NCBI GenBank assembly: GCA_910577495.1
Contig: CAJTML010000002.1
Coordinates: 4,503 to 68,502 of the forward strand
Direction of reading: 5' to 3'
DNA: 64,000 nt
DNA from: an uncultured Eggerthellaceae bacterium
Lineage (GTDB): Bacteria > Actinomycetota > Coriobacteriia > Coriobacteriales > Eggerthellaceae
Shown here: piece after piece, positions 4,194 to 20,192 of the stretch
How positions within the stretch are numbered: position 1 is the stretch's first letter
Layout: each line of letters opens with the position of its first letter
Notes under the pieces: model-generated
Seen by the model: the letters and a program-made list of their open reading frames with translations, nothing else
Told to the model about the DNA's origin: nothing
Database searches by the model: none
Program-made: the position numbers and the translations under genes

Positions 4194-7100
4194 TTACGCT
4201 TCGCCTTTCGCTGTGTGTGCAGCAATCTCAGCAATGATGTCTTGAGTAGGCATAATCTTAATCGTTTGCGAAGGCAGCGAGTTCAAAAACGTCTTGCCAT
4301 ACCCCTTCGTCACCAGGCGATTATCAGCAAGAATAAGAATGCCGGTATCGGTTGATTTGCGAATTAGGCGACCAGCTGCTTGCTTTGTTTCCAACACCGC
4401 TGCCGGCAGCACGAAATGGCGCCAGGCCTGGTCATCACGCGCGGCGCGCTCGCATGAGAGCGGATCACTCGGTTTGGCGAAGGGCAGCTTCGGAATCACC
4501 ACGCCTTTGAGCGTGGAACCAGGGGCGTCAAAGCCCTCCCAGAAACTTTTAAGCGCGAAAAGCGACAGGTGCTCGTCTTTAATGAAGTCATCGCGAAGAC
4601 CTTTGACTGACACGCCCCACTTTTGGCAGACCAGGCGAAGCCCTTCAGCTTTTAGCTGGGGTTGCGCTACATCAAAACACGATTCCATCTCTTTTCTGTT
4701 GGTGAACAGCGTTAGCATAGAGCCTTTTTGTGCCAGGTGAACGCCCACTAAGAGCTCTTGCAGCGCCGCCAAATACTGCGGGGCATTTGGCTCAGGCATA
4801 TCTTGCACCACGTACACCGTCATCTGGTTATCAAAATCGTAGCTAGAATCCACTAAACAGCTTGAAGCAGAGGAGAATTCGCCACCATTTAACCCAAGCG
4901 CTTCTTCGAATGACTTGAAGCTTTTGTTCACTGTCAAAGTTGCTGAAGCTAGCACCACTGAATGCGTATGCGCAAAGAGCTTCTCGTTGAGTTTTTCGCC
5001 AACATTAAGTAAGAGCGCCTCTAAAACGTCACTCTGGCGATCCTTCTTCTTGTTGAGCTTTGCGGCATATGCGTAGGTATCCAACGGATTAGTGAGAATG
5101 ACGTTTATTGCGCCGATCTGGTCTTTCAGCTCCATTGCCACCAGCGCAATTTCACGTTGAACCTCAGCTGCGCCCTCAATATCCTCCAAGAAACCAACCA
5201 AGTCCTGACACGCCGTAATAACCTTTTCAGCGTGGTTTTCAAGCTGAGAGCCCAACTCAACCAGTGCCTGGAACGTATCCGACGAGCGAATCTCAGTGTT
5301 AATCCAAAGCTCAACTATGTCGTATGACTTATTGCGCTTATTTGCGTCGAAAAAGAGCAGATCCTTAATATGTGCGCAGAATTCCTTCGCCACCAGCGAA
5401 TACTCTGCCGACGCCAACTTCGCCTTATTCGTTAACCCGTAGAAGAGCGTGCAGCTCTCCCCCATGAGTTTCTGCTCAACCTTACGTTCAGCGCGATTGT
5501 ACAGATTTCGCGTGGAGTCGGTTTCGCCAATCTGGCTTACCAGTCGACTGATTTCTTCGGCATTAAGTTCAACTGAGAAAGCTCGGCGCGCTTCATTCTC
5601 AGCACCGTGAGCCTCATCCAGCACCCAATAACGAAGCGGCGGCAGCAAACCACCATCAGCGGCCTGATCACAGAAGAATAGACTGTGATTAGTGACGACA
5701 ATGTTCGCCGCCTCGGCCTTCCTACGCGAGCCATACACAAAGCACGTATTACCATAAAAGGGGCATTTCCGGCGCAAACATTCCCTACTGGTCGTAGTAA
5801 TTGACCAGCGTGGCAGTGTTCGGTAGTCAATCTTGAGGCTATCTAAATCGTCGTAGTCAGATTGCTCAATATAAGACAGCAGGGCTGCATACGCAGGTGC
5901 TTGCGAAATCTCTTTGCCGGCCACCTCACGTGTTCCGATGCCGTCTCGTCCAATCCGGTCAATCTTTCGCAAACACGGATAGTGCGAAAATCCCTTCAGT
6001 GAAACAAATTCCAGCTTCCCAAACGCAGGATTTTGTTCTGCTAGCGCTTGGCGAAGCGCCGGAAGTTCATGATAAACCAGCTGGTCAAGCAACGCGTTCG
6101 TCTTGGTTGCAACACCAACTCCTATATTATTATCAAGCGAGGTCAACACCGAAGGTACCAGGTAGGCCATAGACTTGCCAACCCCTGTACCCGCTTCAAC
6201 CATGAGGTTTTCTGACGTCGCAAAAGCATTGCGTACAGCTTGCGCCATCTCTAATTGCTCTGCACGCGGCTCAAAATCATCGTATAAACACCCAACAAGA
6301 CCAGCTTGCGAAAAAGCTGCCTCAATATCTGCAGGCTCCGGAAATACGAGTTTTCGCTCTGGATCTGCAGCAATATCGTCGGCATCTAACTTCGGCTTAC
6401 CAATTACATTCGTAACTCGCGCTTTTCGCATCGTTCTGAGCGAGTAATTAACATCAGTAAACGTCGGTGCACTCTCAGTGCTCCCTGAGTCCAGCGCATC
6501 CTTATTGTTTGAACTCTCTCGCTCTGCCAGTTGCAGCTGATGCTGCTCTTTGTACTGGTTGGCGAAATACTCAAAGACAATTTGCGTTGACCACTGATCC
6601 GGCGTTGCGAGGTCAGCAATCTCACAAACTAACGCGCTCGGCATACTCGCAATAGCAGCTAATAGAATCCTGTAGATTGCACACGTAGCAGCGACGTCAT
6701 CGTCTGCCCGATGCGTTGATACTGGCGCCCCAAACGCTTTTACCAGGTCAATAAGCCGATGAGACTTCATTCGAGGAAGTGCAATGCGAGTCAAATCTAG
6801 CGAATCAATCCATTGATTCGTCAGCAGGGGATATCCACTTGGATGCTTCGTAGTAAATGTTCTATCGAATTCGGCATTGTGCGCAATTACTTTTGCGTCG
6901 CCAACAAATTCGACCAACTGAGCCAACGCTTCTTCTGGTGTAGGGGCGTCAGCCACGTCGTCATCATGAATGTTTGTAAGATACTGCACATCGTCAGGAA
7001 TGGGTTTACCTGGGTTAACAAACGTATTAAACCACCCAGTGATTTCGCCATTCTCCATCCGGGCAGCTGCAATTTGCGTTAACTCATCATGGTGGAAGGA

Positions 7101-10305: not shown

Positions 10306-11352
10306 TTATTCTTCATTATGAGTTATCTGCTGGAAGAGGCGCTGTAAGTCCTCTTCGTCTTTAAACTCAATTTCAATCTTATTCTTACCTTTTACAGACT
10401 TAACACGCACATTAGTCTGCAAAGTCTCACGTAAATTGCGAGCCACTGTCTTAAACGTCTTAGGCATTGGCTCACGCGGCGTAGAAGAAGTGTTTTGTTT
10501 TCCTGCCAATAAACGTGCAATAGCTTCTGCTTCACGTACAGATAGCTTCTCCTGGACAAGTTTATCAGTAAGCTTTTGACGTCCTTCTTTAGTTGGAATT
10601 GAAAGGATTGCTCGCGCGTGACCTGCGGTTATCTTGTCTTCAAAGAGTAATTGCTGAGCATCCTCGGGTAATTCTAGGAGACGCAATGCATTAGCAACTG
10701 TCGAACGGCCTTTTGAAACAGCTTGAGCTACTTCGGCTTGAGTCATTCGACGACGTTCCATCATCCTTCGGTACCCATATGCTTCTTCAATAGGATTCAG
10801 GTCTGAACGCTGGATATTCTCAATAAGTGCCAGCTCTAACGCTTCATCATCGTTTGCATCTTTAATTCGGATGGGAACTTTCTTTAAACCGGCTAATTGA
10901 GAAGCCTGCCAACGACGTTCACCGGCAATAATCTGATATCGGTTGTCAGGAAGCGGACGAACCAGGATTGGCTGTAGTAAGCCATCCTTTTTAATTGAAG
11001 ATGCTAATTCTTCTAATTCTTCTTTATCGAAATTCGTTCGTGGCTGGTCAGGATTCGGTTCTACGAGCTTAATATCAACTTCGTCAGTATTCTTTTTCTC
11101 CTCAGAAGGCGCCTTTTCAGCTTTAGCTACCTTTTGAGCCTTGTTATCAGTAACCGATACTGGTTGCTTCTCAACCTCGCGCTCAACAACAATACCTTCT
11201 TCAGCAGCAAGAGGATCGATTATCGTTGAACTTTCTTCTACCTCAACACGCACCCGGTGAGGAGTGGTCTCCATAGGTGTTGCTTCCTCCATAGATCCAC
11301 TTAAAAGAGAATTTAAACCACGGCCAAGGCCTTTTTTGACATTATTAGCCAC
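10306..11352 (-). CDS. parB: Chromosome partitioning protein ParB/Spo0J
   Basis: 348 aa. ParB box GERRWQASQLAGLKKVP, an HTH region, and a C-terminal dimerisation segment. It overlaps the parA stop by 8 nt. Confidence 0.92.
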   Translation of the reverse strand: MANNVKKGLGRGLNSLLSGSMEEATPMETTPHRVRVEVEESSTIIDPLAAEEGIVVEREVEKQPVSVTDNKAQKVAKAEKAPSEEKKNTDEVDIKLVEPNPDQPRTNFDKEELEELASSIKKDGLLQPILVRPLPDNRYQIIAGERRWQASQLAGLKKVPIRIKDANDDEALELALIENIQRSDLNPIEEAYGYRRMMERRRMTQAEVAQAVSKGRSTVANALRLLELPEDAQQLLFEDKITAGHARAILSIPTKEGRQKLTDKLVQEKLSVREAEAIARLLAGKQNTSSTPREPMPKTFKTVARNLRETLQTNVRVKSVKGKNKIEIEFKDEEDLQRLFQQITHNEE

Positions 11353-12331
11353 GTTGTATCACTTCCTTTGCGAGATCTAAATAAGCTGTAGCACCTTTAC
11401 CGGTAGGATCATAAGTAATAATCGCTTGTCCATAACTTGGTGCTTCTGATAGTTTTACGGTACGAGGAATCAGTGTCTTAAATACTGATTTACCAAAGTA
11501 ATTACGTACTTCTTCAACTACCTGACGGGATAAAGTAGTTCGACCATCATACATGGTGAGCAAAACACCATAGATATCCAACGTCGGATTTAAGCGAGAT
11601 TTGACACGTTTCATTGAATCAAGAAGTTTTGTCACGCCTTCCAATGCATAAAACTCGCATTGAATAGGGATAATCAACTTATCAGACGCCACTAAAGCAT
11701 TAATAGTCAGCAAGCCGAGCGCAGGCGGGCAGTCAATTAAGATGTAATCATATTTACCGCGAAGTGATCCTGTTGCGTCCTTTAAGCGGTTTTCACGCGC
11801 CATCTCAGTCACAAGCTCTACTTCTGCACCTGCTAAATTAATAGTTGCCGGAACAATATCTACACCTTCGCAAATATCAGGAATAATTACTTCCTCAATC
11901 GGCACGTCATTTAAGAGAACGTCATAAATACAGTTCTGAATCTGACTCTTCATTACACCGAGACCACTTGAGGAATTACCTTGCGGGTCTAGATCAACCA
12001 ATAAGACTTGCTTTCCAAGTGAACCCAAAGCAGCAGCCAAATTCACCGCAGTAGTTGATTTACCAACTCCGCCTTTTTGGTTGATGATTGCGAGAATCTT
12101 TGTCTGCCCAATTACATGTTTAACGGGCGCTTTATCTTTATAAGTTTTTAAAGGGGTTACAGGAATCTCTTGAACAGGAGGTTGAACGGCTGGTCGTTCT
12201 ATAACCTCAATATACTCTTCTGCATCCACTTCGTGTTCAACTTCAGGTTCACTTGCTGACGCCTGTTGTGATGGTTGAGTTGTAAACTCGTTGTCTTTTT
12301 TGTCGCGTTTTAAGCCATCAAAGAATCCCAC
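11345..12331 (-). CDS. parA: Chromosome partitioning ATPase ParA/Soj
   Basis: Deviant Walker A INQKGGVGKST. The listed ORF extends to 12511 but would then read through a parS palindrome. An in-frame GTG at 12331 follows AAAGGGGG by 5 nt, so I call that start (328 aa). Confidence 0.85.
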   Translation of the reverse strand: MGFFDGLKRDKKDNEFTTQPSQQASASEPEVEHEVDAEEYIEVIERPAVQPPVQEIPVTPLKTYKDKAPVKHVIGQTKILAIINQKGGVGKSTTAVNLAAALGSLGKQVLLVDLDPQGNSSSGLGVMKSQIQNCIYDVLLNDVPIEEVIIPDICEGVDIVPATINLAGAEVELVTEMARENRLKDATGSLRGKYDYILIDCPPALGLLTINALVASDKLIIPIQCEFYALEGVTKLLDSMKRVKSRLNPTLDIYGVLLTMYDGRTTLSRQVVEEVRNYFGKSVFKTLIPRTVKLSEAPSYGQAIITYDPTGKGATAYLDLAKEVIQRG

Positions 12332-12376
12332 AAGGACCCCCTTTCTTATTGATTGGACAGTATACCCTGTTTTCAA

Positions 12377-12392
12377 TGTTTCACGTGAAACA
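12377..12392. promoter_or_regulatory. parS site, 16/16, at the centre of a 34-bp perfect palindrome (12368..12401)
   Basis: TGTTTTCAATGTTTCACGTGAAACATTGAAAACA equals its own reverse complement. It lies between the rsmG stop and the parA start. Confidence 0.85.
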
Positions 12393-12440
12393 TTGAAAAC
12401 AATATTTGTTTGTCGGCAAAAGAAAGCGATAAAGCAATAC

Positions 12441-13091
12441 TTAGAGTGGTTTCTTTTGAGCGAATCCTGTTTTACGAGGCAACTTGATTGTTGGTTTTGA
12501 AACTTTTTCAAATACCACTATGCAACGATGTTTGTCATAGAGCTCGAAATCACGTCTTGAAACAAGTTTCATGCCAAGTGTTTTCTCTAAACTAAGTGCT
12601 TTAGTAAATTCTTCATCTTCTAAGTTGCTTTTATAACAAATCAGGTATCCACCTTTAATAAGAAGGGGAGATGCGAATTCCATCAAAATAGATAATTGAG
12701 ACAAGGCTCGTGCAGTAATAACAGCGAAGCTCTGAGGTTGCTCTTTTGCGAGATCTTCAATTCGTCCATGATACGTCGAAACTGAAGATAAATCTAACTC
12801 TTTAATAATAGTATCTAAAACTGCGGTCTTCTTTCCAACTGAATCAACAAGAAGTGTCTCTCTTCCACTGGTGACCGCAAGCGGTATACCTGGATAGCCG
12901 GCACCACAACCAATATCAGCATAGCGCCCTTCCGGCGCTTTATTAAGCTCCTCTAAGCCAGTTAGTGAATCCTCAATATGAAATTTCTTGCCTTCATCAA
13001 ATGAATCAATGCGAGTTAAGTTAGTAATCTTATTTGCCTCTAATACCAGCTCAAGGTGTTTCTCTAACACTGACTGCGTAGTCGAATCCAT
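12441..13091 (-). CDS. rsmG: 16S rRNA (guanine527-N7)-methyltransferase RsmG/GidB
   Basis: NLTRI...HIEDSL...DIGCGAGYPGIPLA SAM-binding motif. The ORF is open up to 13169. The ATG at 13091 (MDSTTQ...) gives the usual N-terminal length, but the start is uncertain. Confidence 0.85.
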   Translation of the reverse strand: MDSTTQSVLEKHLELVLEANKITNLTRIDSFDEGKKFHIEDSLTGLEELNKAPEGRYADIGCGAGYPGIPLAVTSGRETLLVDSVGKKTAVLDTIIKELDLSSVSTYHGRIEDLAKEQPQSFAVITARALSQLSILMEFASPLLIKGGYLICYKSNLEDEEFTKALSLEKTLGMKLVSRRDFELYDKHRCIVVFEKVSKPTIKLPRKTGFAQKKPL

Positions 13092-14901: not shown

Positions 14902-15238
14902 ATAATCTATCCTTCGAAATTCCAGCGTCATAAAGTGCACGATCGCATGCAGTAAGCACTTTACTATAAGTAACCTCACAAATATTTGATTTTGCAAGAA
15001 ATACCACGTTATAAGCGCTCCAGGGACCAGAAAGCTCCTGACAAATTGCACGCATGCGTCTCTTTGCTCTATTCCTCCAAACAGCGTTACCGTATTTTTT
15101 ACCCGCAACAAAAGCAACACGACCATTGAGGTCGTGCTCTTTTGTTGGCAACACTATTAATGTTAAGTATGGTGTTCTTAAACGCTTGCCTGAAGAGAAG
15201 AGATTAGCAATCTCTTCTTTCGATTTGATTGTTTCCAA
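14870..15238 (-). CDS. rnpA: Ribonuclease P protein component
   Basis: 122 aa, in the conserved rpmH-rnpA-yidD-yidC order, with a basic RNase P protein pattern (...VAGKKYGNAVWRNRAKRRMR...). Confidence 0.88.
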   Translation of the reverse strand: METIKSKEEIANLFSSGKRLRTPYLTLIVLPTKEHDLNGRVAFVAGKKYGNAVWRNRAKRRMRAICQELSGPWSAYNVVFLAKSNICEVTYSKVLTACDRALYDAGISKDRLYEGEVSKTTN

Positions 15239-15250
15239 TCAAATCTCACC

Positions 15251-15385
15251 TTAGACGCAAAGACGCTTACGGCCTTTTGCGCGGCGCGCGGCCAATACCT
15301 TACGTCCGCCTTTCGTAGCCATACGAGCGCGGAAACCATGGCATTTGGCGCGTTTACGAGTGTTCGGTTGGTAAGTGCGCTTCAT
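15251..15385 (-). CDS. rpmH: 50S ribosomal protein L34
   Basis: Not in the ORF track because it is under 60 aa. Hand translation gives [44 protein letters not shown]. Confidence 0.93.
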
Positions 15386-15558
15386 GTTAGTCCCTTTCGT
15401 TTTTACATAGCAACTTAAGAAGTATAGCTATCTCACTCAAAAAGTCAATAATTACCTTGGCTTTTAGTGAAAAATATTTTTACCGCGCAATAGAGGAGAT
15501 CCAAAGGATAGATATAAGAGACACACGAATTACTTTTGTTCGATATTTTCTGGTCGCG

Positions 15559-15923
15559 ATTCCACGGTGTTTGTTGGAAATGTTGAAAACTGTACAATCA
15601 TTCGAGGAATATTGTGGAAAACCCTTGCAAGAGGTGTAAGTCAAGTATTTTTTTGAGGTCAACTTAAGCCGCGTTTTACCAGGTCAAGTAAGTTCGCTCG
15701 ATTGTATTTTTGCTTCTGATCTGGGATTTTAGAACAAACGCCATAGTGAGGAGTGCTGGAAATTTTTTACAAACTACAGAACCCCACGTCAAATGAGAAT
15801 TACTAGTAATTGCACCCAAAGAAACACTATTTAAGGTATCTGCTCATCATTTTAATAACAAAGCTTTGTGGTTTTCCACATTCCGAATCCTTGTTATTCA
15901 TTCAATTCGGGGAGTTTTCCACA
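15559..15923. promoter_or_regulatory. DnaA-box cluster (oriC-like region I) in the 700-bp non-coding gap downstream of the divergent point
   Basis: Three exact TTTTCCACA boxes: 15613..15621 (reverse orientation), 15872..15880 and 15915..15923. Weaker variants are TGTTGGAAA and TGTTGAAAA at about 15571-15589. Gene orientation switches here. Confidence 0.6.
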
Positions 15924-16087
15924 AAGTTTGAATAAATTGTTAGTAACTTTTTGTTTCACCTGTTGATTTCGCTATTATATATTTCAGATTTACTGAATTA
16001 TTCGCATATTCCACCGGAATATCTATTCCAATAATAGAAATAATCCCTGAATACCGATACAATGACGAATAATTCTTTCAGAATTTA

Positions 16088-17158
16088 TTGAATATAGATT
16101 CAATGCCTGGAACAACTATACCGAATATGAGTGAAAACGCAGATCAAACGATGAATACAGACAACAACACTCTAACAACGCCTCCTGACTATGCCTTTGT
16201 GGATTCCGTCGCACGCATTGCACTTTACGATGATCTACTCAGTGCACCACGGATGACCGAGATCCAACCGGATGAAACAGCAGCATTTCTAGAGACACTC
16301 GCTTCAACTATCTATAATCTTTCTCATGAAATTGGTGGAACGATCCCTTACACCATTATTAGAGAAGTGAGCGAGAACTTTATTCATGCTCAATTTAATG
16401 AACCGACCGTAACCATCCTTGATCATGGCAATACAATTCAATTCACTGATCAAGGTCCAGGTATCGAGCAAAAAGAAAAGGCACTTCGCCCGGCGTTTAC
16501 TACCGCCACTAAGGAAATGAAGTCTTATATTAGAGGTGTTGGATCAGGTCTTCCTATTGTTGCTGAATACCTGGAAGTGTCACGTGGTTATATCACTATC
16601 GAAGATAATCTTGGATCTGGTTCAGTTATCACAATTAGTCTCAATAAGAATGAAGACCACGAAAGCGTACAACCGCTTTATCAAACACCACAACAGCCAA
16701 CCCAACAACCAGTACAACAGATGCAACCGGTTTTACAACCAGAACCAATACAGGCGTACGCCCCAGTTGCTGTACAGCAAACACCTCTACAGCAACCTAT
16801 ACAATACGGGGTAGGACAACCAATGGTTCCACAACAAACACTACAACAACCGCAAATGGCTCCACACGTAGTGCCGGTTTATCCCCAGCAGACACAATAT
16901 CCACCGCAACAACAAGCTACCTATATACAAGTGCCTAAGCTTGACGAAAAAGAGCGCCAGATTCTTATTGAGTTACTCCAGCAAAACTACCTTGGGGTAA
17001 CGGATCTCACGCGTCTTACTAATATTCCTCAAGCAACTGTCCATTCAAAGTTAACGAAATTAGAAAAGAATGGCATGGTTATTACCGTAGATTCACCACG
17101 AAAAGGCCTCAGAGCTCTCACTGAATTTGGAGCCACGGTAGCGAAAACGTTGTTATAG
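16088..17158 (+). CDS. GHKL (anti-sigma/histidine-kinase-like) ATPase domain, Q/P-rich linker, C-terminal winged-helix DNA-binding domain
   Basis: 356 aa. N-box-like IREVSENFIHAQ, G1-like FTDQGPGI, G2-like RGVGSGLPIVAEYL...GSGSVITISL. About 100 aa of Q/P repeats follow. The C-terminus ERQILIELLQQNYLGVTDLTRLTNIPQATVHSKLTKLEKNGMV is a MarR/ArsR-like wHTH. The start is uncertain: TTG 16088, ATG 16103 or ATG 16127. Confidence 0.6.
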   Translation: MNIDSMPGTTIPNMSENADQTMNTDNNTLTTPPDYAFVDSVARIALYDDLLSAPRMTEIQPDETAAFLETLASTIYNLSHEIGGTIPYTIIREVSENFIHAQFNEPTVTILDHGNTIQFTDQGPGIEQKEKALRPAFTTATKEMKSYIRGVGSGLPIVAEYLEVSRGYITIEDNLGSGSVITISLNKNEDHESVQPLYQTPQQPTQQPVQQMQPVLQPEPIQAYAPVAVQQTPLQQPIQYGVGQPMVPQQTLQQPQMAPHVVPVYPQQTQYPPQQQATYIQVPKLDEKERQILIELLQQNYLGVTDLTRLTNIPQATVHSKLTKLEKNGMVITVDSPRKGLRALTEFGATVAKTLL

Positions 17159-17203
17159 TTTTACAAGAGTTGAGATATTTACCAACTGAGAACAGGTAGC
17201 GCA

Positions 17204-18733
17204 ATGGATAGTAATACATTAACGCAGTCATGGAATAGTGTTTGTGAGCAAATTAAGACCTACGACGGAGTAGATCCTTCGCAAGTTGATGCATTCTTTT
17301 CACGCATTCACCCTCAAGCAATGAGCGAAGGCTTTTTAATGCTTTCTGCTGATAATGACTTTATTAAATTCTTCATCGAACGCGATTTTCTACCTCATAT
17401 CAAACGCGCTTTAGAAGAACAGTTCTCAGTTCCTTTTACCGTTATGCTGGAAGTTGATCCACTTTCATCATCAAATGTATTACCAACGACAGAAACTGCA
17501 CCAGCACCTACCGCTCCTGTAACTCCAACTCCAGCTGTTACAGCACCGCAACCACCATCACAGACACAACCTCGGACTCAAGGCTTTCCTGAGACTGAAG
17601 ATTTATTACTGAATCCCGATTTTTACACCGAAGAGGTACCTCAAACACCTCAACAAAAGTCGCCACTTCCGCAAAACAACACGCTTTCCAGTTATACGTT
17701 CGAAAACTTTGTTATCGGTGACTCAAATAGGATTCCTTACACTATGGCAGTTACGGTAGCCGAACAACCAGGCAGACAAGCCTATAACCCACTCTTTATT
17801 TATGGGCGAAGTGGCCTGGGTAAAACACACTTGCTATGTGCAATGCGCAACTATATCGAAGAAACCCGTCCTGAGTTGAATACAATCTACGTTAACGCAG
17901 ATGAATTAGTAAACAACTACACCGAATCAGCGCTTGCATACGATAAAGATAAGTCCAGCTATAAGAACTTTAAAGATTTATACGAAGATGCAGATGTCCT
18001 CTTTATTGATGACGTGCAACAGTTGCAAGGTAAAAAACAAACCCTTGATATCGTGTTTCAGATCTTTAACACCTTAATCCATAAGGGCAAGCAGGTTGTT
18101 TTATCAGCTGACCGTGCCCCCCATAACATCGACATTGATGAGCGCTATTATTCCCGTTTCAACCAGGGTGGCACCTTCGACATTCAACCACCTGAGTTGG
18201 AAACAAAGCTCGGAATTATTAAGCTCTACATTAAAGACTATAACCAGACAAACCCTTATGATACGGTCGAAATACCTGATGACGTGCAGCTCTATATCGC
18301 CGAGAACTCAGGACCGAATATTCGCGAACTTAAGAGTGCGGTTCTCAAAATTATTTCCAAAATCAAGATCGAGCATTTAACCGATATGACAATTTCCGAT
18401 GTTCGCCGCGAGTTAGAGAACCATTTCTCAGGTGGATCATTTAGGCGTTTTACATCTGATGACATCATTGACCAGGTTAAAGCATTCTATAAAGTAAGCG
18501 ACAAAGACTTAAAGTCATCCAATCGCACACACAATGTTGCGTTTGCAAGGCAAGTTGCATTCTTCCTGATTAAGCAATTTACTGATCTGACGTTTCAAGA
18601 TATTGGAAAGCAATTTAACCGTCACCACTCAACCGTTATCACCTCGGTTCAAAAAATCGAGAAACTCATGATTAGTGATAGGGAAGTGAGCGAAGAAATT
18701 GACGTACTGTCAAAAATGATTCGCGAAGGATAA
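17204..18733 (+). CDS. dnaA: Chromosomal replication initiator protein DnaA
   Basis: 509 aa. Walker A GRSGLGKTHLL, box VII, domain IV ...NRHHSTVITSVQKIE..., and a P/T/Q-rich domain II linker. Confidence 0.95.
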   Translation: MDSNTLTQSWNSVCEQIKTYDGVDPSQVDAFFSRIHPQAMSEGFLMLSADNDFIKFFIERDFLPHIKRALEEQFSVPFTVMLEVDPLSSSNVLPTTETAPAPTAPVTPTPAVTAPQPPSQTQPRTQGFPETEDLLLNPDFYTEEVPQTPQQKSPLPQNNTLSSYTFENFVIGDSNRIPYTMAVTVAEQPGRQAYNPLFIYGRSGLGKTHLLCAMRNYIEETRPELNTIYVNADELVNNYTESALAYDKDKSSYKNFKDLYEDADVLFIDDVQQLQGKKQTLDIVFQIFNTLIHKGKQVVLSADRAPHNIDIDERYYSRFNQGGTFDIQPPELETKLGIIKLYIKDYNQTNPYDTVEIPDDVQLYIAENSGPNIRELKSAVLKIISKIKIEHLTDMTISDVRRELENHFSGGSFRRFTSDDIIDQVKAFYKVSDKDLKSSNRTHNVAFARQVAFFLIKQFTDLTFQDIGKQFNRHHSTVITSVQKIEKLMISDREVSEEIDVLSKMIREG

Positions 18734-18757
18734 TTGAAGAAATTGTGCAAATTGCAA

Positions 18758-18995
18758 TGTTGATAACTTCGAACAAACCATGCGGGAAGTTTGAGGAAAA
18801 CAACGGATTTTTTCGTAATGATAATTTCACCAATAAAATTTAGACAAACCGCCACAACCTAACCTCAGAGTTATGAAGGTGCGCACGGTGTCTCTTATAT
18901 GAGGAAATAAGGAGTTATCCACAAACTAACATCCCTTATTAAGATTATGAGTAAAACAAAGTTATAAAGATAAGATAAGAAAGAAAAATTAAAGT
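18758..18995. promoter_or_regulatory. dnaA-dnaN intergenic DnaA boxes plus an AT-rich tract (oriC-like region II, candidate DUE)
   Basis: Exact TTATCCACA at 18915..18923. A one-mismatch box (TTATCAACA, reverse orientation) at 18758..18766. A strongly AT-rich run at about 18935..18995 (…TTATTAAGATTATGAGTAAAACAAAGTTATAAAGATAAGATAAGAAAGAAAAATTAAAG…). Confidence 0.55.
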
Positions 18996-19088
18996 ACACC
19001 CGCTTGATCGAGATATTTAAATCTCATCAAGGTGTGCGATACTTACAACCTACGAAAAACTAGCCGCTCAAGGGACGTGAGGATCTTT

Positions 19089-20192
19089 ATGAAATTCAGT
19101 ATCAACAAAACTGAACTCCAGAATGCATTAGCTGTAGTCATGAAGGGTACTTCCACTCGTTCAACGCTTCCTATTCTTTCGGGTGTTTATATTGAAACCC
19201 AGGAAGATGCTCTTTTACTCCAGGCCACAGACTTAGAGCTTTCTATCCAATATCACACCTCCGCCCTTATTGAGGAACCGGGGAAAACGGTACTACCTGG
19301 TAAGCTTTTCTCAGACATCGTTAAAAGCATGCCCGATGCAGCAATCCATGTTGACATCAACGATGAAGCTGCGGTTATCACCTGCGACACCTCGTCGTTT
19401 TCAATTAAGACGCTTTCTGCTGAAGACTTTCCGGGATTCCCGCATGTTGATATTCAACAAGAAATTTCGGTTCCTTTCGACACGTTTGCTTCAATGGTTA
19501 AGCGTGTGGCGCGCATTGTTTCAAAAGACGAAAGCCGCGGCGTATTGCAGGGTGTTTTGATTACACTCAAAGAAAATCAGCTTCGACTGGTTGCAACTGA
19601 CTCGTATCGTGTTGCGGTAACTGATGCAGAGGTAGAGCAAACCGAAGCTACGGATTTCCAAGCGGTAATTCTTGGGTCTTTCTTACAAGAAATTGCGTCG
19701 CTTCCGCGCAGCGAAGAACCTATCTCTATTGCACTTGCAGAAAACCAAATTGTGATGAAGTATCAGGATACGGTGTTTATTAACCGCCGCATTGAAGGTA
19801 ACTACCCTAACTATCAACAGTTGCTTCCTACGTCATATGCTACTCGCGTTGAGATTCCAACTGATATGTTACTTGCAGCAGTGAAACGTATTTCGCTTTT
19901 GAGCCCGAATAACTCACGCGTTAAATTTGACATCAATGTTGATTCGCAGACGCTGCAGCTTTCAACGGTTGCCCAAGATGTGGGTTCAGCTCAAGAAATG
20001 CTTCCGGCAACCGTATTAGGTGAAGACAATGTGATTGGGTTTAACTATACCTACATCGTGGATGGCCTTACCTCTATTGTGACCGACAAAGTGATCTTCG
20101 AAATGCAAGCTCCTAATAAACCAGGTATTTTAAAGGCGGATCTTGGCGAAGATTACTTATATCTGGTTATGCCGGTTACCTTAGACGCGTAA
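19089..20192 (+). CDS. dnaN: DNA polymerase III beta sliding clamp
   Basis: MKFSINKTELQNAL... The ATG at 19089 is preferred over the listed 19032 start. It has the three-domain clamp length (367 aa). Confidence 0.93.
   Translation: MKFSINKTELQNALAVVMKGTSTRSTLPILSGVYIETQEDALLLQATDLELSIQYHTSALIEEPGKTVLPGKLFSDIVKSMPDAAIHVDINDEAAVITCDTSSFSIKTLSAEDFPGFPHVDIQQEISVPFDTFASMVKRVARIVSKDESRGVLQGVLITLKENQLRLVATDSYRVAVTDAEVEQTEATDFQAVILGSFLQEIASLPRSEEPISIALAENQIVMKYQDTVFINRRIEGNYPNYQQLLPTSYATRVEIPTDMLLAAVKRISLLSPNNSRVKFDINVDSQTLQLSTVAQDVGSAQEMLPATVLGEDNVIGFNYTYIVDGLTSIVTDKVIFEMQAPNKPGILKADLGEDYLYLVMPVTLDA

Follow-up and report, generated by a model that had tools for sequence, protein, structure and literature searches.

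What is encoded between a cluster of DnaA-box-like sites and dnaA, and does its product act on its neighbors? Within the 64,000-nt window (the whole stretch of DNA that was analyzed), the interposed ORF, here termed X, encodes a protein whose N-terminal GHKL domain is connected through a Q/P-rich linker, predicted to be disordered, to a winged helix at the C-terminus. A sequence-only reading of this DNA had proposed X as a candidate regulator of initiation, of dnaA transcription or of origin organization, a role that we likewise infer from context.

Conservation and distribution of X

The coding region is defined as follows.

16088..17158, + strand: ORF X, 356 aa from a TTG start, with alternative starts at ATG 16103, 16127 and 16151

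The start codon of X is uncertain. The database copy begins at ATG 16127 (343 aa), and ATG 16151 is also possible because an in-frame TAG breaks the N-terminal extension of X in the close relative A. agrestimuris. Whichever codon is used, the first ~33 residues show no conservation. X is nonetheless a real, conserved protein: 3797 homologs were recovered by database search at E<=1e-3, and mean column identity across the N-domain is 79% in an alignment (A2) of 13 diverse sequences selected for the purpose, results that together argue against a chance ORF.

A profile of the N-domain, searched against a collection of 1.84 billion (1.84e9) proteins, gave 1492 matches at E<=1e-3 and 305 clusters at E<=1e-30. 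By these sequence criteria the X family is discrete. It occurs in at least 571 species genomes, with lineages in Eggerthellaceae, Coriobacteriaceae, Atopobiaceae and environmental MAGs, and all named members among the best 80 loci and 150 representatives belong to Coriobacteriia. Source databases label the homologs "ATP-binding protein", with one member termed "MarR family transcriptional regulator". Searches of the literature and of curated families found no paper and no curated family for X, and comparison of X with DnaA found no homology.

Domain architecture

Profile and structure searches found both a GHKL and a winged-helix fold, as had been proposed, and divide X into three parts.

16187..16648, + strand: stand-alone GHKL (HATPase_c) domain, residues 34-187 (Pfam, invariant columns, AF2, Foldseek)
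16364-16390, + strand: motif I (N box) EVSENFIHA, residues 93-101 (E93-x3-N97, H100)
16448-16465, + strand: G1 box DQGPGI, residues 121-126 (D121, G123 and G125 invariant)
16535-16555, + strand: G2 box GVGSGLP, residues 150-156 (G150, G152, G154 and L155 invariant)
16649..16927, + strand: Q/P-rich low-complexity linker, residues 188-280 (composition, predicted disorder)
16928..17155, + strand: C-terminal winged helix-turn-helix (HTH_24/TrmB/MarR/Csa3-like), residues 281-356

Residues 88-187 match Pfam HATPase_c (PF02518) with an E value of 7.9e-10 and 39.6 bits, above the gathering score of 26.4, and the Pfam cut-off is exceeded in 23/23 family members. The N, G1 and G2 motifs first picked out by eye are borne out by their invariance: E93/N97, D121/G123/G125 and G150/G152/G154 are unchanged among 23 family sequences, and the N box additionally has invariant E96 and H100. 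Foldseek pairs the domain with the catalytic domains of HK853, PDK2 and CckA (probability 1.0, E 4e-5), and its modeled fold is an alpha/beta sandwich whose lid and last strands are predicted with low confidence. Confidence in the full-length AF2 model is low at the ATP lid and throughout the C-terminal half of the domain; a domain-only AlphaFold model was poorer (pLDDT 62.8, C-terminal half <50).

The lead-in to the ATPase core (residues 34-88) is predicted from AF2 secondary structure to be a conserved beta-beta-alpha element with no DHp hairpin, and residues 34-62 within it are extremely conserved. Consistent with the earlier claim that X has no phosphoacceptor domain, no HisKA/DHp-type Pfam family matched X even at E<=1, and no invariant His lies N-terminal to the N box among aligned homologs. 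By Pfam and AF2, no transducer domain follows the ATPase domain, which passes directly into the disordered linker, and motif I alone aligns with MutL (E 0.004). GyrB/MutL-type enzymes hydrolyze ATP with a transducer lysine. Because this lysine is absent from X, its GHKL domain may merely bind ATP without hydrolyzing it. PADLOC defense-system models gave no match to residues 1-280.

The linker contains 30% Q and 19% P and is predicted to be disordered (AF2 pLDDT <50). It had been described as a Gln/Pro repeat region; the Q/P richness stands, and the repeat does not, as Tandem Repeats Finder detected none in the linker DNA. The linker is a compositional bias with no true repeat. Its length among homologs ranges from 19 to 156 aa; some members have a very short one or carry the low-complexity stretch at the N-terminus instead.

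The C-terminal winged helix, also anticipated from sequence, is the best-modeled part of X (pLDDT 90-97). Residues 285-339 exceed the cut-offs for HTH_24 (26.5 bits; cut-off 21.9) and TrmB (25.8 bits; cut-off 25.6), and profile search found the domain in 22/23 family members. BpsR, AdcR and AspA superpose on it with rmsd of 1.2-1.6 A over 67-75 residues in Foldseek, with TM-scores of 0.69-0.76 for AspA when normalized to the target. X was rejected as a MarR-family regulator proper. MarR profiles fall below cut-off (MarR 17.4 versus 24.6; MarR_2 20.8 versus 27), and the AF2 domain of only ~75 aa lacks the N- and C-terminal flanking helices through which MarR proteins dimerize. The best match of the winged helix was to the Csa3/CARF-wHTH models of PADLOC (E 1.3e-8), proteins built on the same logic as X, with a nucleotide-sensing part preceding the wHTH.

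Linkage and co-transcription with dnaA

Downstream of X on the same strand lies dnaA.

17204..18733, + strand: dnaA, 509 aa, beginning 45 nt after the X stop codon

No terminator-like site was found in the 45-nt gap. On the other side of X, rpmH is encoded on the minus strand at ~15254-15385. The co-directional position immediately upstream of dnaA, noted originally for the window, proved general. X directly precedes dnaA on the same strand in 85/86 loci representing all sampled Coriobacteriia lineages, with a gap usually < ~160 nt, and homologs are not scattered over other genomic positions. Of the 80 species loci included (the best 80 listed), 79 are linked, and X is likewise directly followed by dnaA in Collinsella, in three divergent lineages and for a common type-B protein. 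The exception is a MAG locus (L056) where X is followed by rpmH, without dnaA. In one clade the rpmH-dnaN segment is inverted: the block of DnaA boxes, X and dnaA moved together, and the neighbors rpmH and dnaN were exchanged. The genes beside X are rpmH (or dnaN where inverted) and dnaA in 85/86 loci, with no response regulator among them, and no STAS or sigma-factor gene adjoins X in the window or related loci. X also lies close to parA, but its tight operon link is with dnaA and not parAB.

Transcripts were examined in four RNA-seq runs of Gordonibacter isolates from two studies (Logan contigs) and in a mouse-gut metatranscriptome containing the window's own organism. A candidate promoter element precedes X in the window.

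16058..16063, + strand: TACAAT, candidate -10 element of the X-dnaA promoter; two close relatives conserve it

A single Gordonibacter contig, running from 5961/5980 to 8751, spans X, the gap and dnaA. Mean depth is 72-129 by run, a single mean per contig that does not resolve the profile along the operon. Depth falls to ~0-4 just upstream of the contig (5727-5887) in the two paired-end runs, and the contig's 5' end is 6 nt after a TACAAT, the same hexamer as the one preceding X in the window. One mouse-gut contig also bridges X and dnaA; the contigs of this data set, at 2-5x, are too shallow for transcript ends and could include DNA carry-over. With one Gordonibacter RNA contig covering both genes, X and dnaA form a two-gene operon in which X is promoter-proximal, in agreement with the co-transcription that had been suggested. 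The operon is conserved across Coriobacteriia and sits right next to the main DnaA-box cluster.

DnaA boxes and the origin region

The 700-nt rpmH-X intergenic region contains four DnaA-box-like sites of the form TTTTC[CA]AC, at 15582, 15614, 15872 and 15915, so that X does lie between a DnaA-box cluster and dnaA (17204), as first described. These sites and other elements of the region are listed below.

15573..15621, - strand: DnaA-box module 1, TTTTCCACA-N22-GTTTTCAACA+TTTCCAAC, a single box plus tandem boxes
15872-15880 and 15915-15923, + strand: two GTTTTCCACA DnaA boxes, proximal to the X promoter
16006..16022, no strand: inverted repeat ATATTCC-ACC-GGAATAT, a candidate operator just upstream of the candidate -35
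18734..19031, no strand: dnaA-dnaN intergenic region, with one perfect TTATCCACA box at 18915 and, after it, a stretch of 78% AT

Module 1 recurs in the same orientation ~580 nt upstream of X in 13 other loci, which include both gene arrangements. Overall, the density of DnaA-box-like sites is 6.65/kb upstream of X versus 0.17/kb elsewhere in the loci. The k-mers enriched across 60 non-redundant regions upstream of X were the DnaA-box-like GTTTTCCACA, GTTTTCAACA and TTTATTCA. In this same set no X-specific operator emerged, all enriched elements being DnaA-box-like, and no other motif was enriched when the analysis was repeated on the proximal 300 nt with DnaA boxes masked. The ATATTCC-N3-GGAATAT palindrome is conserved in the window's clade only, with a similar one in Senegalimassilia; palindromes of this kind occur in 15/72 loci versus 3.2 in shuffled sequences, the hits being phylogenetically clustered. 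Rfam scans of the window and of 15200-19200 revealed no RNA family in the intergenic regions.

Cumulative GC skew reaches its minimum at ~19.5 kb, but the Q/P/T codons of X and dnaA make both genes C-rich. The dnaA-dnaN intergenic region is possibly the second half of a bipartite origin. A literature search found no paper describing a Coriobacteriia origin. From sequence comparison, likely features of one are the consensus GTTTTC(C/A)ACA, the conserved tandem-box module and an invertible block of boxes, X and dnaA.

Candidate functions of X

The likeliest reading, to which we give an even chance, is that X modulates dnaA expression or initiation at the adjacent origin through ATP-dependent binding to DNA. 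X would be a one-component, ATP-dependent DNA-binding protein. Other GHKL proteins dimerize upon ATP binding, and X probably does so too when its GHKL domain takes up ATP. Dimerization would control engagement of DNA in the origin and dnaA-promoter region by two tethered winged helices, and in this way X would adjust transcription of its operon with dnaA, the action of DnaA at oriC, or both. The protein would be made from DnaA's own mRNA, right beside its site of action. A more ambitious version, which we regard as rather unlikely, casts X as a hitherto unrecognized, Coriobacteriia-specific initiation factor, a co-initiator or ATP-gated brake. Under this version X would be the first GHKL-type ATP-binding protein to work alongside DnaA at an origin in bacteria. 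Its gene would lie within a bipartite oriC, a single mRNA would yield the two proteins in stoichiometric amounts, and X would probably be essential.

Three alternatives, each of them distinctly improbable and none favored over the others, compete with the main reading. X could be a SpoIIAB/RsbW-type kinase or partner-switching factor. Its GHKL domain would bind a protein partner, DnaA or a different initiation factor, and might phosphorylate it, with the winged helix serving only as a tether near the origin. Like the anti-sigma serine kinases, X has a stand-alone GHKL domain of ~150 aa without a DHp, and it shows weak similarity to the TIGR01925 anti-sigma F factor profile (E 7e-4) and to SpoIIAB structures (E ~0.5). 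The extremely conserved residues 34-62 could form a protein-binding surface, and X and DnaA arise from the same mRNA. However, the TIGR01925 score of 19.6 bits is far below the family cut-off of 135, Pfam detects no HATPase_c_2 match in X, and adjacent STAS or sigma-factor genes are absent.

A second low-probability proposal makes X an origin-proximal chromosome-organization factor. It would work either as a DNA clamp or bridge driven by ATP, in the manner of MORC, or as a winged-helix protein of the centromere type. Its effect would be on the shape or placement of the origin region, with initiation and dnaA transcription outside its control. GHKL ATPases that dimerize on ATP and entrap DNA are known, among them MORC and topoisomerase VI. 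Long flexible tethers suit bridging, and the gene sits beside the origin and close to parA. Against this, neither a MORC-type (HATPase_c_3) nor a transducer domain was found in X, its ATPase domain is closest in sequence to histidine-kinase catalytic domains, and the operon partner is dnaA and not parAB. The likeness of its winged helix to the centromere-binding protein AspA is generic to small winged helices, with MarR proteins scoring equally.

With similarly little probability, X is an ordinary one-component transcription factor having a replication-unrelated regulon, and it adjoins dnaA simply through inheritance of the gene order, with no functional meaning. Gene order near an origin can stay conserved for reasons unconnected with a common function. 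A sensor joined to a wHTH is the domain logic of ordinary regulators, one source does label a member as a MarR family regulator, and the k-mer searches near dnaA yielded no X-specific operator. Speaking against simple inheritance are retention of the pair in 85/86 loci across three families and environmental lineages, its joint movement through an inversion, the short gap, co-transcription, and the unusually strong conservation of the N-domain. Finally, the notion that X is no real gene, or is the remnant of a decayed histidine kinase, is refuted: it draws on an uncertain start codon and on the one third of X that is low-complexity, but full-length homologs exist by the thousands with invariant catalytic motifs, X is transcribed, and its GHKL and winged-helix domains both exceed Pfam cut-offs.

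Among the Coriobacteriia are Eggerthella lenta, Gordonibacter, Adlercreutzia and Collinsella, which abound in the gut and metabolize drugs and polyphenols. DnaA control varies between lineages, and we know of nothing established about it in this class. Its place upstream of dnaA across Coriobacteriia, on the same mRNA, makes X a strong and testable candidate for controlling chromosome replication in a lineage-specific way. Adjacent to dnaA in every sampled lineage and co-transcribed with it, X offers an entry point to DnaA control in these bacteria.

Relationship to known systems

X is an uncharacterized protein made of known domains. Its best sequence and structure matches are the CA domains of histidine kinases (HK853, 3dge; KinB, 3d36; CpxA, 4biu), which have a Bergerat fold with the same N/G1/G2 boxes. 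Unlike two-component histidine kinases, X lacks a DHp/HisKA domain, a phospho-acceptor His, membrane or sensor modules and a nearby response regulator, and is fused to a DNA-binding domain. With SpoIIAB/RsbW it shares a small stand-alone GHKL domain without DHp, an ExxxN motif I and weak profile similarity, but it is far below the family thresholds, is without sigma-factor or STAS partner genes, and carries a wHTH. Csa3/CARF-wHTH proteins also place an N-terminal nucleotide-binding sensor before a C-terminal winged helix; the sensor of X is GHKL rather than CARF, its tether is long and disordered, and there is no CRISPR context. GHL ATPases of the GyrB/MutL/Hsp90/MORC type differ in having a transducer domain.

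The architecture had been thought undescribed. That holds in that no paper or curated family was found, but not for the domain order, for which there is precedent elsewhere: in DIP2311 (PDB 3lmm; AlbA_2/HATPase_c_4/wHTH, a type labeled "putative regulators"), a GHKL-like domain is likewise followed by a winged helix. Foldseek aligned X with 3lmm over 348 columns (E 1.1e-3) with a low TM-score, and X has no AlbA_2 or HATPase_c_4 Pfam match. The DIP2311-type family has no characterized function and, to our knowledge, no link to dnaA. Archaeal Orc1/Cdc6 is a conceptual analogy only: there too an ATPase module precedes a C-terminal winged helix, the part in contact with origin DNA; its ATPase is AAA+ and not GHKL, there is no homology, and X coexists with a normal DnaA.

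In its proposed role, X resembles other clade-restricted proteins that act on DnaA or the origin. Lineage-specific regulators of this kind include YabA, SirA, Soj and DnaD of Bacillus, DiaA/HobA, Hda, SeqA and CtrA, along with the actinobacterial MtrA and AdpA, the latter with reported ATP-sensitive binding to oriC. The Pfam and NCBIfam matches of X include no known family of DnaA/oriC regulators (YabA, SirA, DiaA, HobA, Hda, SeqA etc.). We know of none among these regulators that is a GHKL protein or that is encoded upstream on the dnaA mRNA throughout a class, nor of any GHKL-type nucleotide-binding module that has been linked to bacterial initiation. If X does use ATP to gate initiation or the expression of dnaA, it would represent a new mechanistic class of DnaA regulator and a clade-specific handle on the growth of Coriobacteriia.

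X is a GHKL domain tethered to a winged helix

The plus-strand ORF at 16088-17158, hereafter X, encodes 356 aa when read from TTG, as the sequence-only reading had described, and has the following neighbours:

~15254-15385, minus strand: rpmH, on one side of X
17204-18733, plus strand: dnaA, on the same strand as X and 45 nt downstream of it

A terminator-like site was looked for in the 45-nt X-dnaA gap and none was found. The TTG start is uncertain. A public copy of the identical protein begins at ATG 16127 (343 aa), residues 1 to ~33 show no conservation in an alignment with 23 homologues (43-75% identity), and an in-frame stop within the N-terminal extension of a close relative would favor ATG 16151.

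The alignment divides X into an N-terminal domain (residues 34-187), a linker, and a C-terminal winged helix that is ~75 residues long and conserved. Pfam HATPase_c matched residues 88-187 (E 7.9e-10; 39.6 bits, gathering score 26.4) and no HisKA-type Pfam family was detected even at E<=1. The three ATP-binding motifs quoted in the sequence-only reading were located at nt 16364-16390, 16448-16465 and 16535-16555 and are intact, with invariant E93, E96, N97 and H100 in motif I (N box), D121, G123 and G125 in G1, and G150, G152, G154 and L155 in G2. Mean column identity over the N-terminal domain was 79% in 13 selected, diverse sequences, and its lead-in segment (DYxFVxxVARIALYDDLxSAPRxTEIxP) is nearly invariant. 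AlphaFold2 modeled residues 34-120 confidently (pLDDT 74-93) and the ATP lid with low confidence. Foldseek searches of the PDB matched the domain to the catalytic domains of HK853 (E 4e-5), CckA and CheA (P4), and to PDK2, while its profile matched KinB, HK853, CheA, the motif-I region of MutL and, marginally only, SpoIIAB.

At the C-terminus, residues 285-339 matched Pfam HTH_24 (26.5 bits, cut-off 21.9) and TrmB (25.8, cut-off 25.6), residues 280-356 were modeled confidently (pLDDT 90-97), and Foldseek aligned the fold with MarR-type and AspA winged helices in the PDB at an rmsd of 1.2-1.6 A over 67-75 residues. Matches to PADLOC models were confined to the winged helix, the best being Csa3/CARF-wHTH regulators (E 1.3e-8). 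The Pfam, AlphaFold2, Foldseek, profile and PADLOC results thus show X to consist of a stand-alone GHKL nucleotide-binding domain to which a small winged helix is tethered.

The linker (residues 188-280; 30% Gln, 19% Pro) is predicted by AlphaFold2 to be disordered. Its Q/P bias had been recognized from sequence; the repeats ascribed to it were not borne out, Tandem Repeats Finder returning nothing. The linkers of homologues are 19 to 156 residues long and show no sequence conservation. Family proteins P0153 and P0159 and a further locus, L085, carry a low-complexity Q/P-rich stretch (~215-235 aa) N-terminal to the GHKL domain and have a short wHTH linker; a disordered Q/P-rich segment is retained in the family despite its shifted position. 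DnaA domain II (window 17204-18733, residues ~90-165) likewise has a P/T/Q-rich low-complexity linker of similar composition, and comparison of X with DnaA revealed no homology.

The X family is discrete

A word-indexed search returned 3797 homologues at E<=1e-3. The best 120 of these, which come from Arabiibacter, Rubneribacter, Adlercreutzia and Eggerthellaceae, share one architecture throughout; those that carry a name are called 'ATP-binding protein' or, in a single case, 'MarR family transcriptional regulator'. NCBIfam holds no family-level model. When 1.84 billion representatives were searched exhaustively with HMMER, the N-domain profile matched no more than 1492 proteins at E<=1e-3 (463 at 1e-10, 305 at 1e-30); the family that it marks is therefore discrete and does not take in GHKL domains at large. 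More distant members listed, from Collinsella and Atopobiaceae, keep both domains with longer linkers. Relatives occur in at least 571 species genomes when one genome per species is scanned. Bins labeled Prevotella, Methanomethylophilaceae archaeon, Butyrivibrio, Akkermansia muciniphila, Agathobacter rectalis or Eubacterium show a typical Coriobacteriia origin locus, and these bins (loci L025, L036, L042, L052, L072 and L022) are probably mislabeled or contaminated.

X heads the dnaA operon

Among the best 80 of at least 571 species loci, 79 have dnaA as the next gene downstream of X, on the same strand. The same position was found in Collinsella (16-nt gap), a very common type-B protein (arrangement below), an environmental MAG (30-nt gap), an N-terminal-IDR variant and a JGI environmental contig. 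The earlier query of whether X always adjoins dnaA in Coriobacteriia is thus answered by 85 of 86 loci overall. The sole exception, at the end of a MAG contig (L056:6-1576), has X (385 aa) followed by rpmH with no dnaA between, which reflects either a genuine rearrangement or an error of assembly.

Two arrangements were seen. Type A, that of the window, reads rpmH(-), X dnaA dnaN recF gyrB. Type B, carried by the Adlercreutzia/Enterorhabdus/Parvibacter/Ellagibacter/Enteroscipio group, reads gyrB(-) recF(-) dnaN(-), X dnaA, rpmH rnpA yidC, and equals type A with the X-dnaA segment inverted relative to rpmH and dnaN. In both, a long intergenic region (630-1190 nt) always lies upstream of X, where DnaA-box-like TTTTC[CA]AC sites number 6.65 per kb as compared with 1.67 downstream of dnaA and 0.17 in the rest of the loci, so the DnaA-box cluster, X and dnaA behave as a single evolutionary unit. 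The inversion breakpoints exactly flank this module (L001-L080; window 15387-19031).

Co-transcription with dnaA, proposed for testing in the sequence-only reading, was evident in a Gordonibacter isolate, where four RNA-seq runs from two studies yielded one RNA contig (L045:5961/5980-8751) covering X (TTG 6010 to 6858), the gap and dnaA (to 8561). Logan, the source of these contigs, gives one mean depth per contig (72-129 by run) and does not resolve the profile along the operon. Just upstream, at L045:5727-5887, depth was ~0-4 in two paired-end runs. The contig 5' end is 6 nt beyond a TACAAT hexamer (L045:5950-5955), consistent with transcription starting there and a leader of ~49 nt. TACAAT also occurs at window 16058-16063 and is conserved in the window's two closest relatives. 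Metatranscriptome contigs from the window's organism are thin; one (17066-17300) spans the X stop and dnaA start codons. X and dnaA thus form a single operon in Gordonibacter, as they very probably do in the window; class-wide, this operon sits beside the main DnaA-box cluster.

In Gordonibacter, the DnaA-box region between rpmH and X (L045:5266-5766) shows low transcription (depth ~15 versus ~75 for X-dnaA). Depth is higher and contigs break at a 32-nt element (L045:8722-8753) within the dnaA-dnaN spacer, which is therefore probably a repeated sequence.

The origin region

In 60 non-redundant upstream regions the Coriobacteriia DnaA-box consensus is apparently GTTTTC(C/A)ACA, with T and not A at box position 3, and TTTTCAACA is another variant that occurs often. 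An TGAATAAA element is enriched between two convergent boxes ~170-280 nt upstream of X, and a conserved module, TTTTCCACA-N~22-GTTTTCAACATTTTCCACAAT, lies ~580 nt upstream. The window has:

15573-15621, minus strand: origin-like module of one box, a ~22-nt spacer and two abutting boxes, GTTTTCAACA+TTTTCCACA

The module recurs in 13 other loci, always pointing away from X in both arrangements, has an invariant TTTTGTTCGATATTTT beside it in the window's clade, and may be the core of oriC. With an origin upstream of X, transcription of all flanking genes would be co-directional with replication in both arrangements. The cumulative GC-skew minimum of the window is at ~19.5 kb, and the dnaA-dnaN spacer holds a perfect TTATCCACA, after which comes a stretch of 78% AT. 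Bacillus subtilis has a bipartite origin; by analogy, one flanking X-dnaA would fit both observations, and X would then be encoded inside the origin.

Across the window (1-64000), G+C is ~40-42% from ~8 kb to ~24 kb (parA to gyrB, origin-proximal core genes) and 50-58% in the flanks. The longest parA ORF (11345-12511, minus strand; 388 aa) reaches ~130 residues N-terminal to the conserved ParA core, and this upstream stretch may be an extension or may not be coding.

Possible roles of X and comparison with known systems

The architecture and setting of X suggest a one-component, ATP-dependent DNA-binding protein that would act in the region of the origin and the dnaA promoter. It is common for GHKL domains to dimerise when they bind nucleotide (GyrB, MutL, Hsp90, MORC). 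Because of this, and because the winged helix as modeled is too small for its own dimer interface, nucleotide-controlled pairing of two tethered winged helices would be the simplest mechanism. The Csa3-like winged helix fits a 'nucleotide sensor then wHTH' logic. No class-wide DNA motif other than DnaA-box-like elements was found upstream of X, so X might recognize one box variant, such as the TGAATAAA element, bind DNA with low specificity, or act mainly via DnaA. We give even chances to X acting on dnaA expression or initiation, and regard a truly new class of initiation factor as conceivable but doubtful.

Three alternatives are each unlikely, and equally so: a DnaA-directed kinase or partner switch, an origin-organising clamp, and an unrelated regulator. 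X lacks both a DHp domain and a response regulator, and so is not a histidine kinase; neither score nor context places it among SpoIIAB-type kinases, and the missing transducer domain sets it apart from GyrB/MutL/MORC-type enzymes.

The HATPase_c and wHTH parts, and sensor-plus-wHTH regulators as a kind, are already known. A full-text literature search found no paper on the X family; new are the family itself, its restriction to Coriobacteriia as far as sampled, and its fixed place as first dnaA-operon cistron. Described DnaA regulators in Pfam and NCBIfam are unrelated to X, and Foldseek matched X weakly, from end to end, with DIP2311 (PDB 3lmm), a protein of unassigned function in which a GHKL-like domain is likewise combined with a wHTH.
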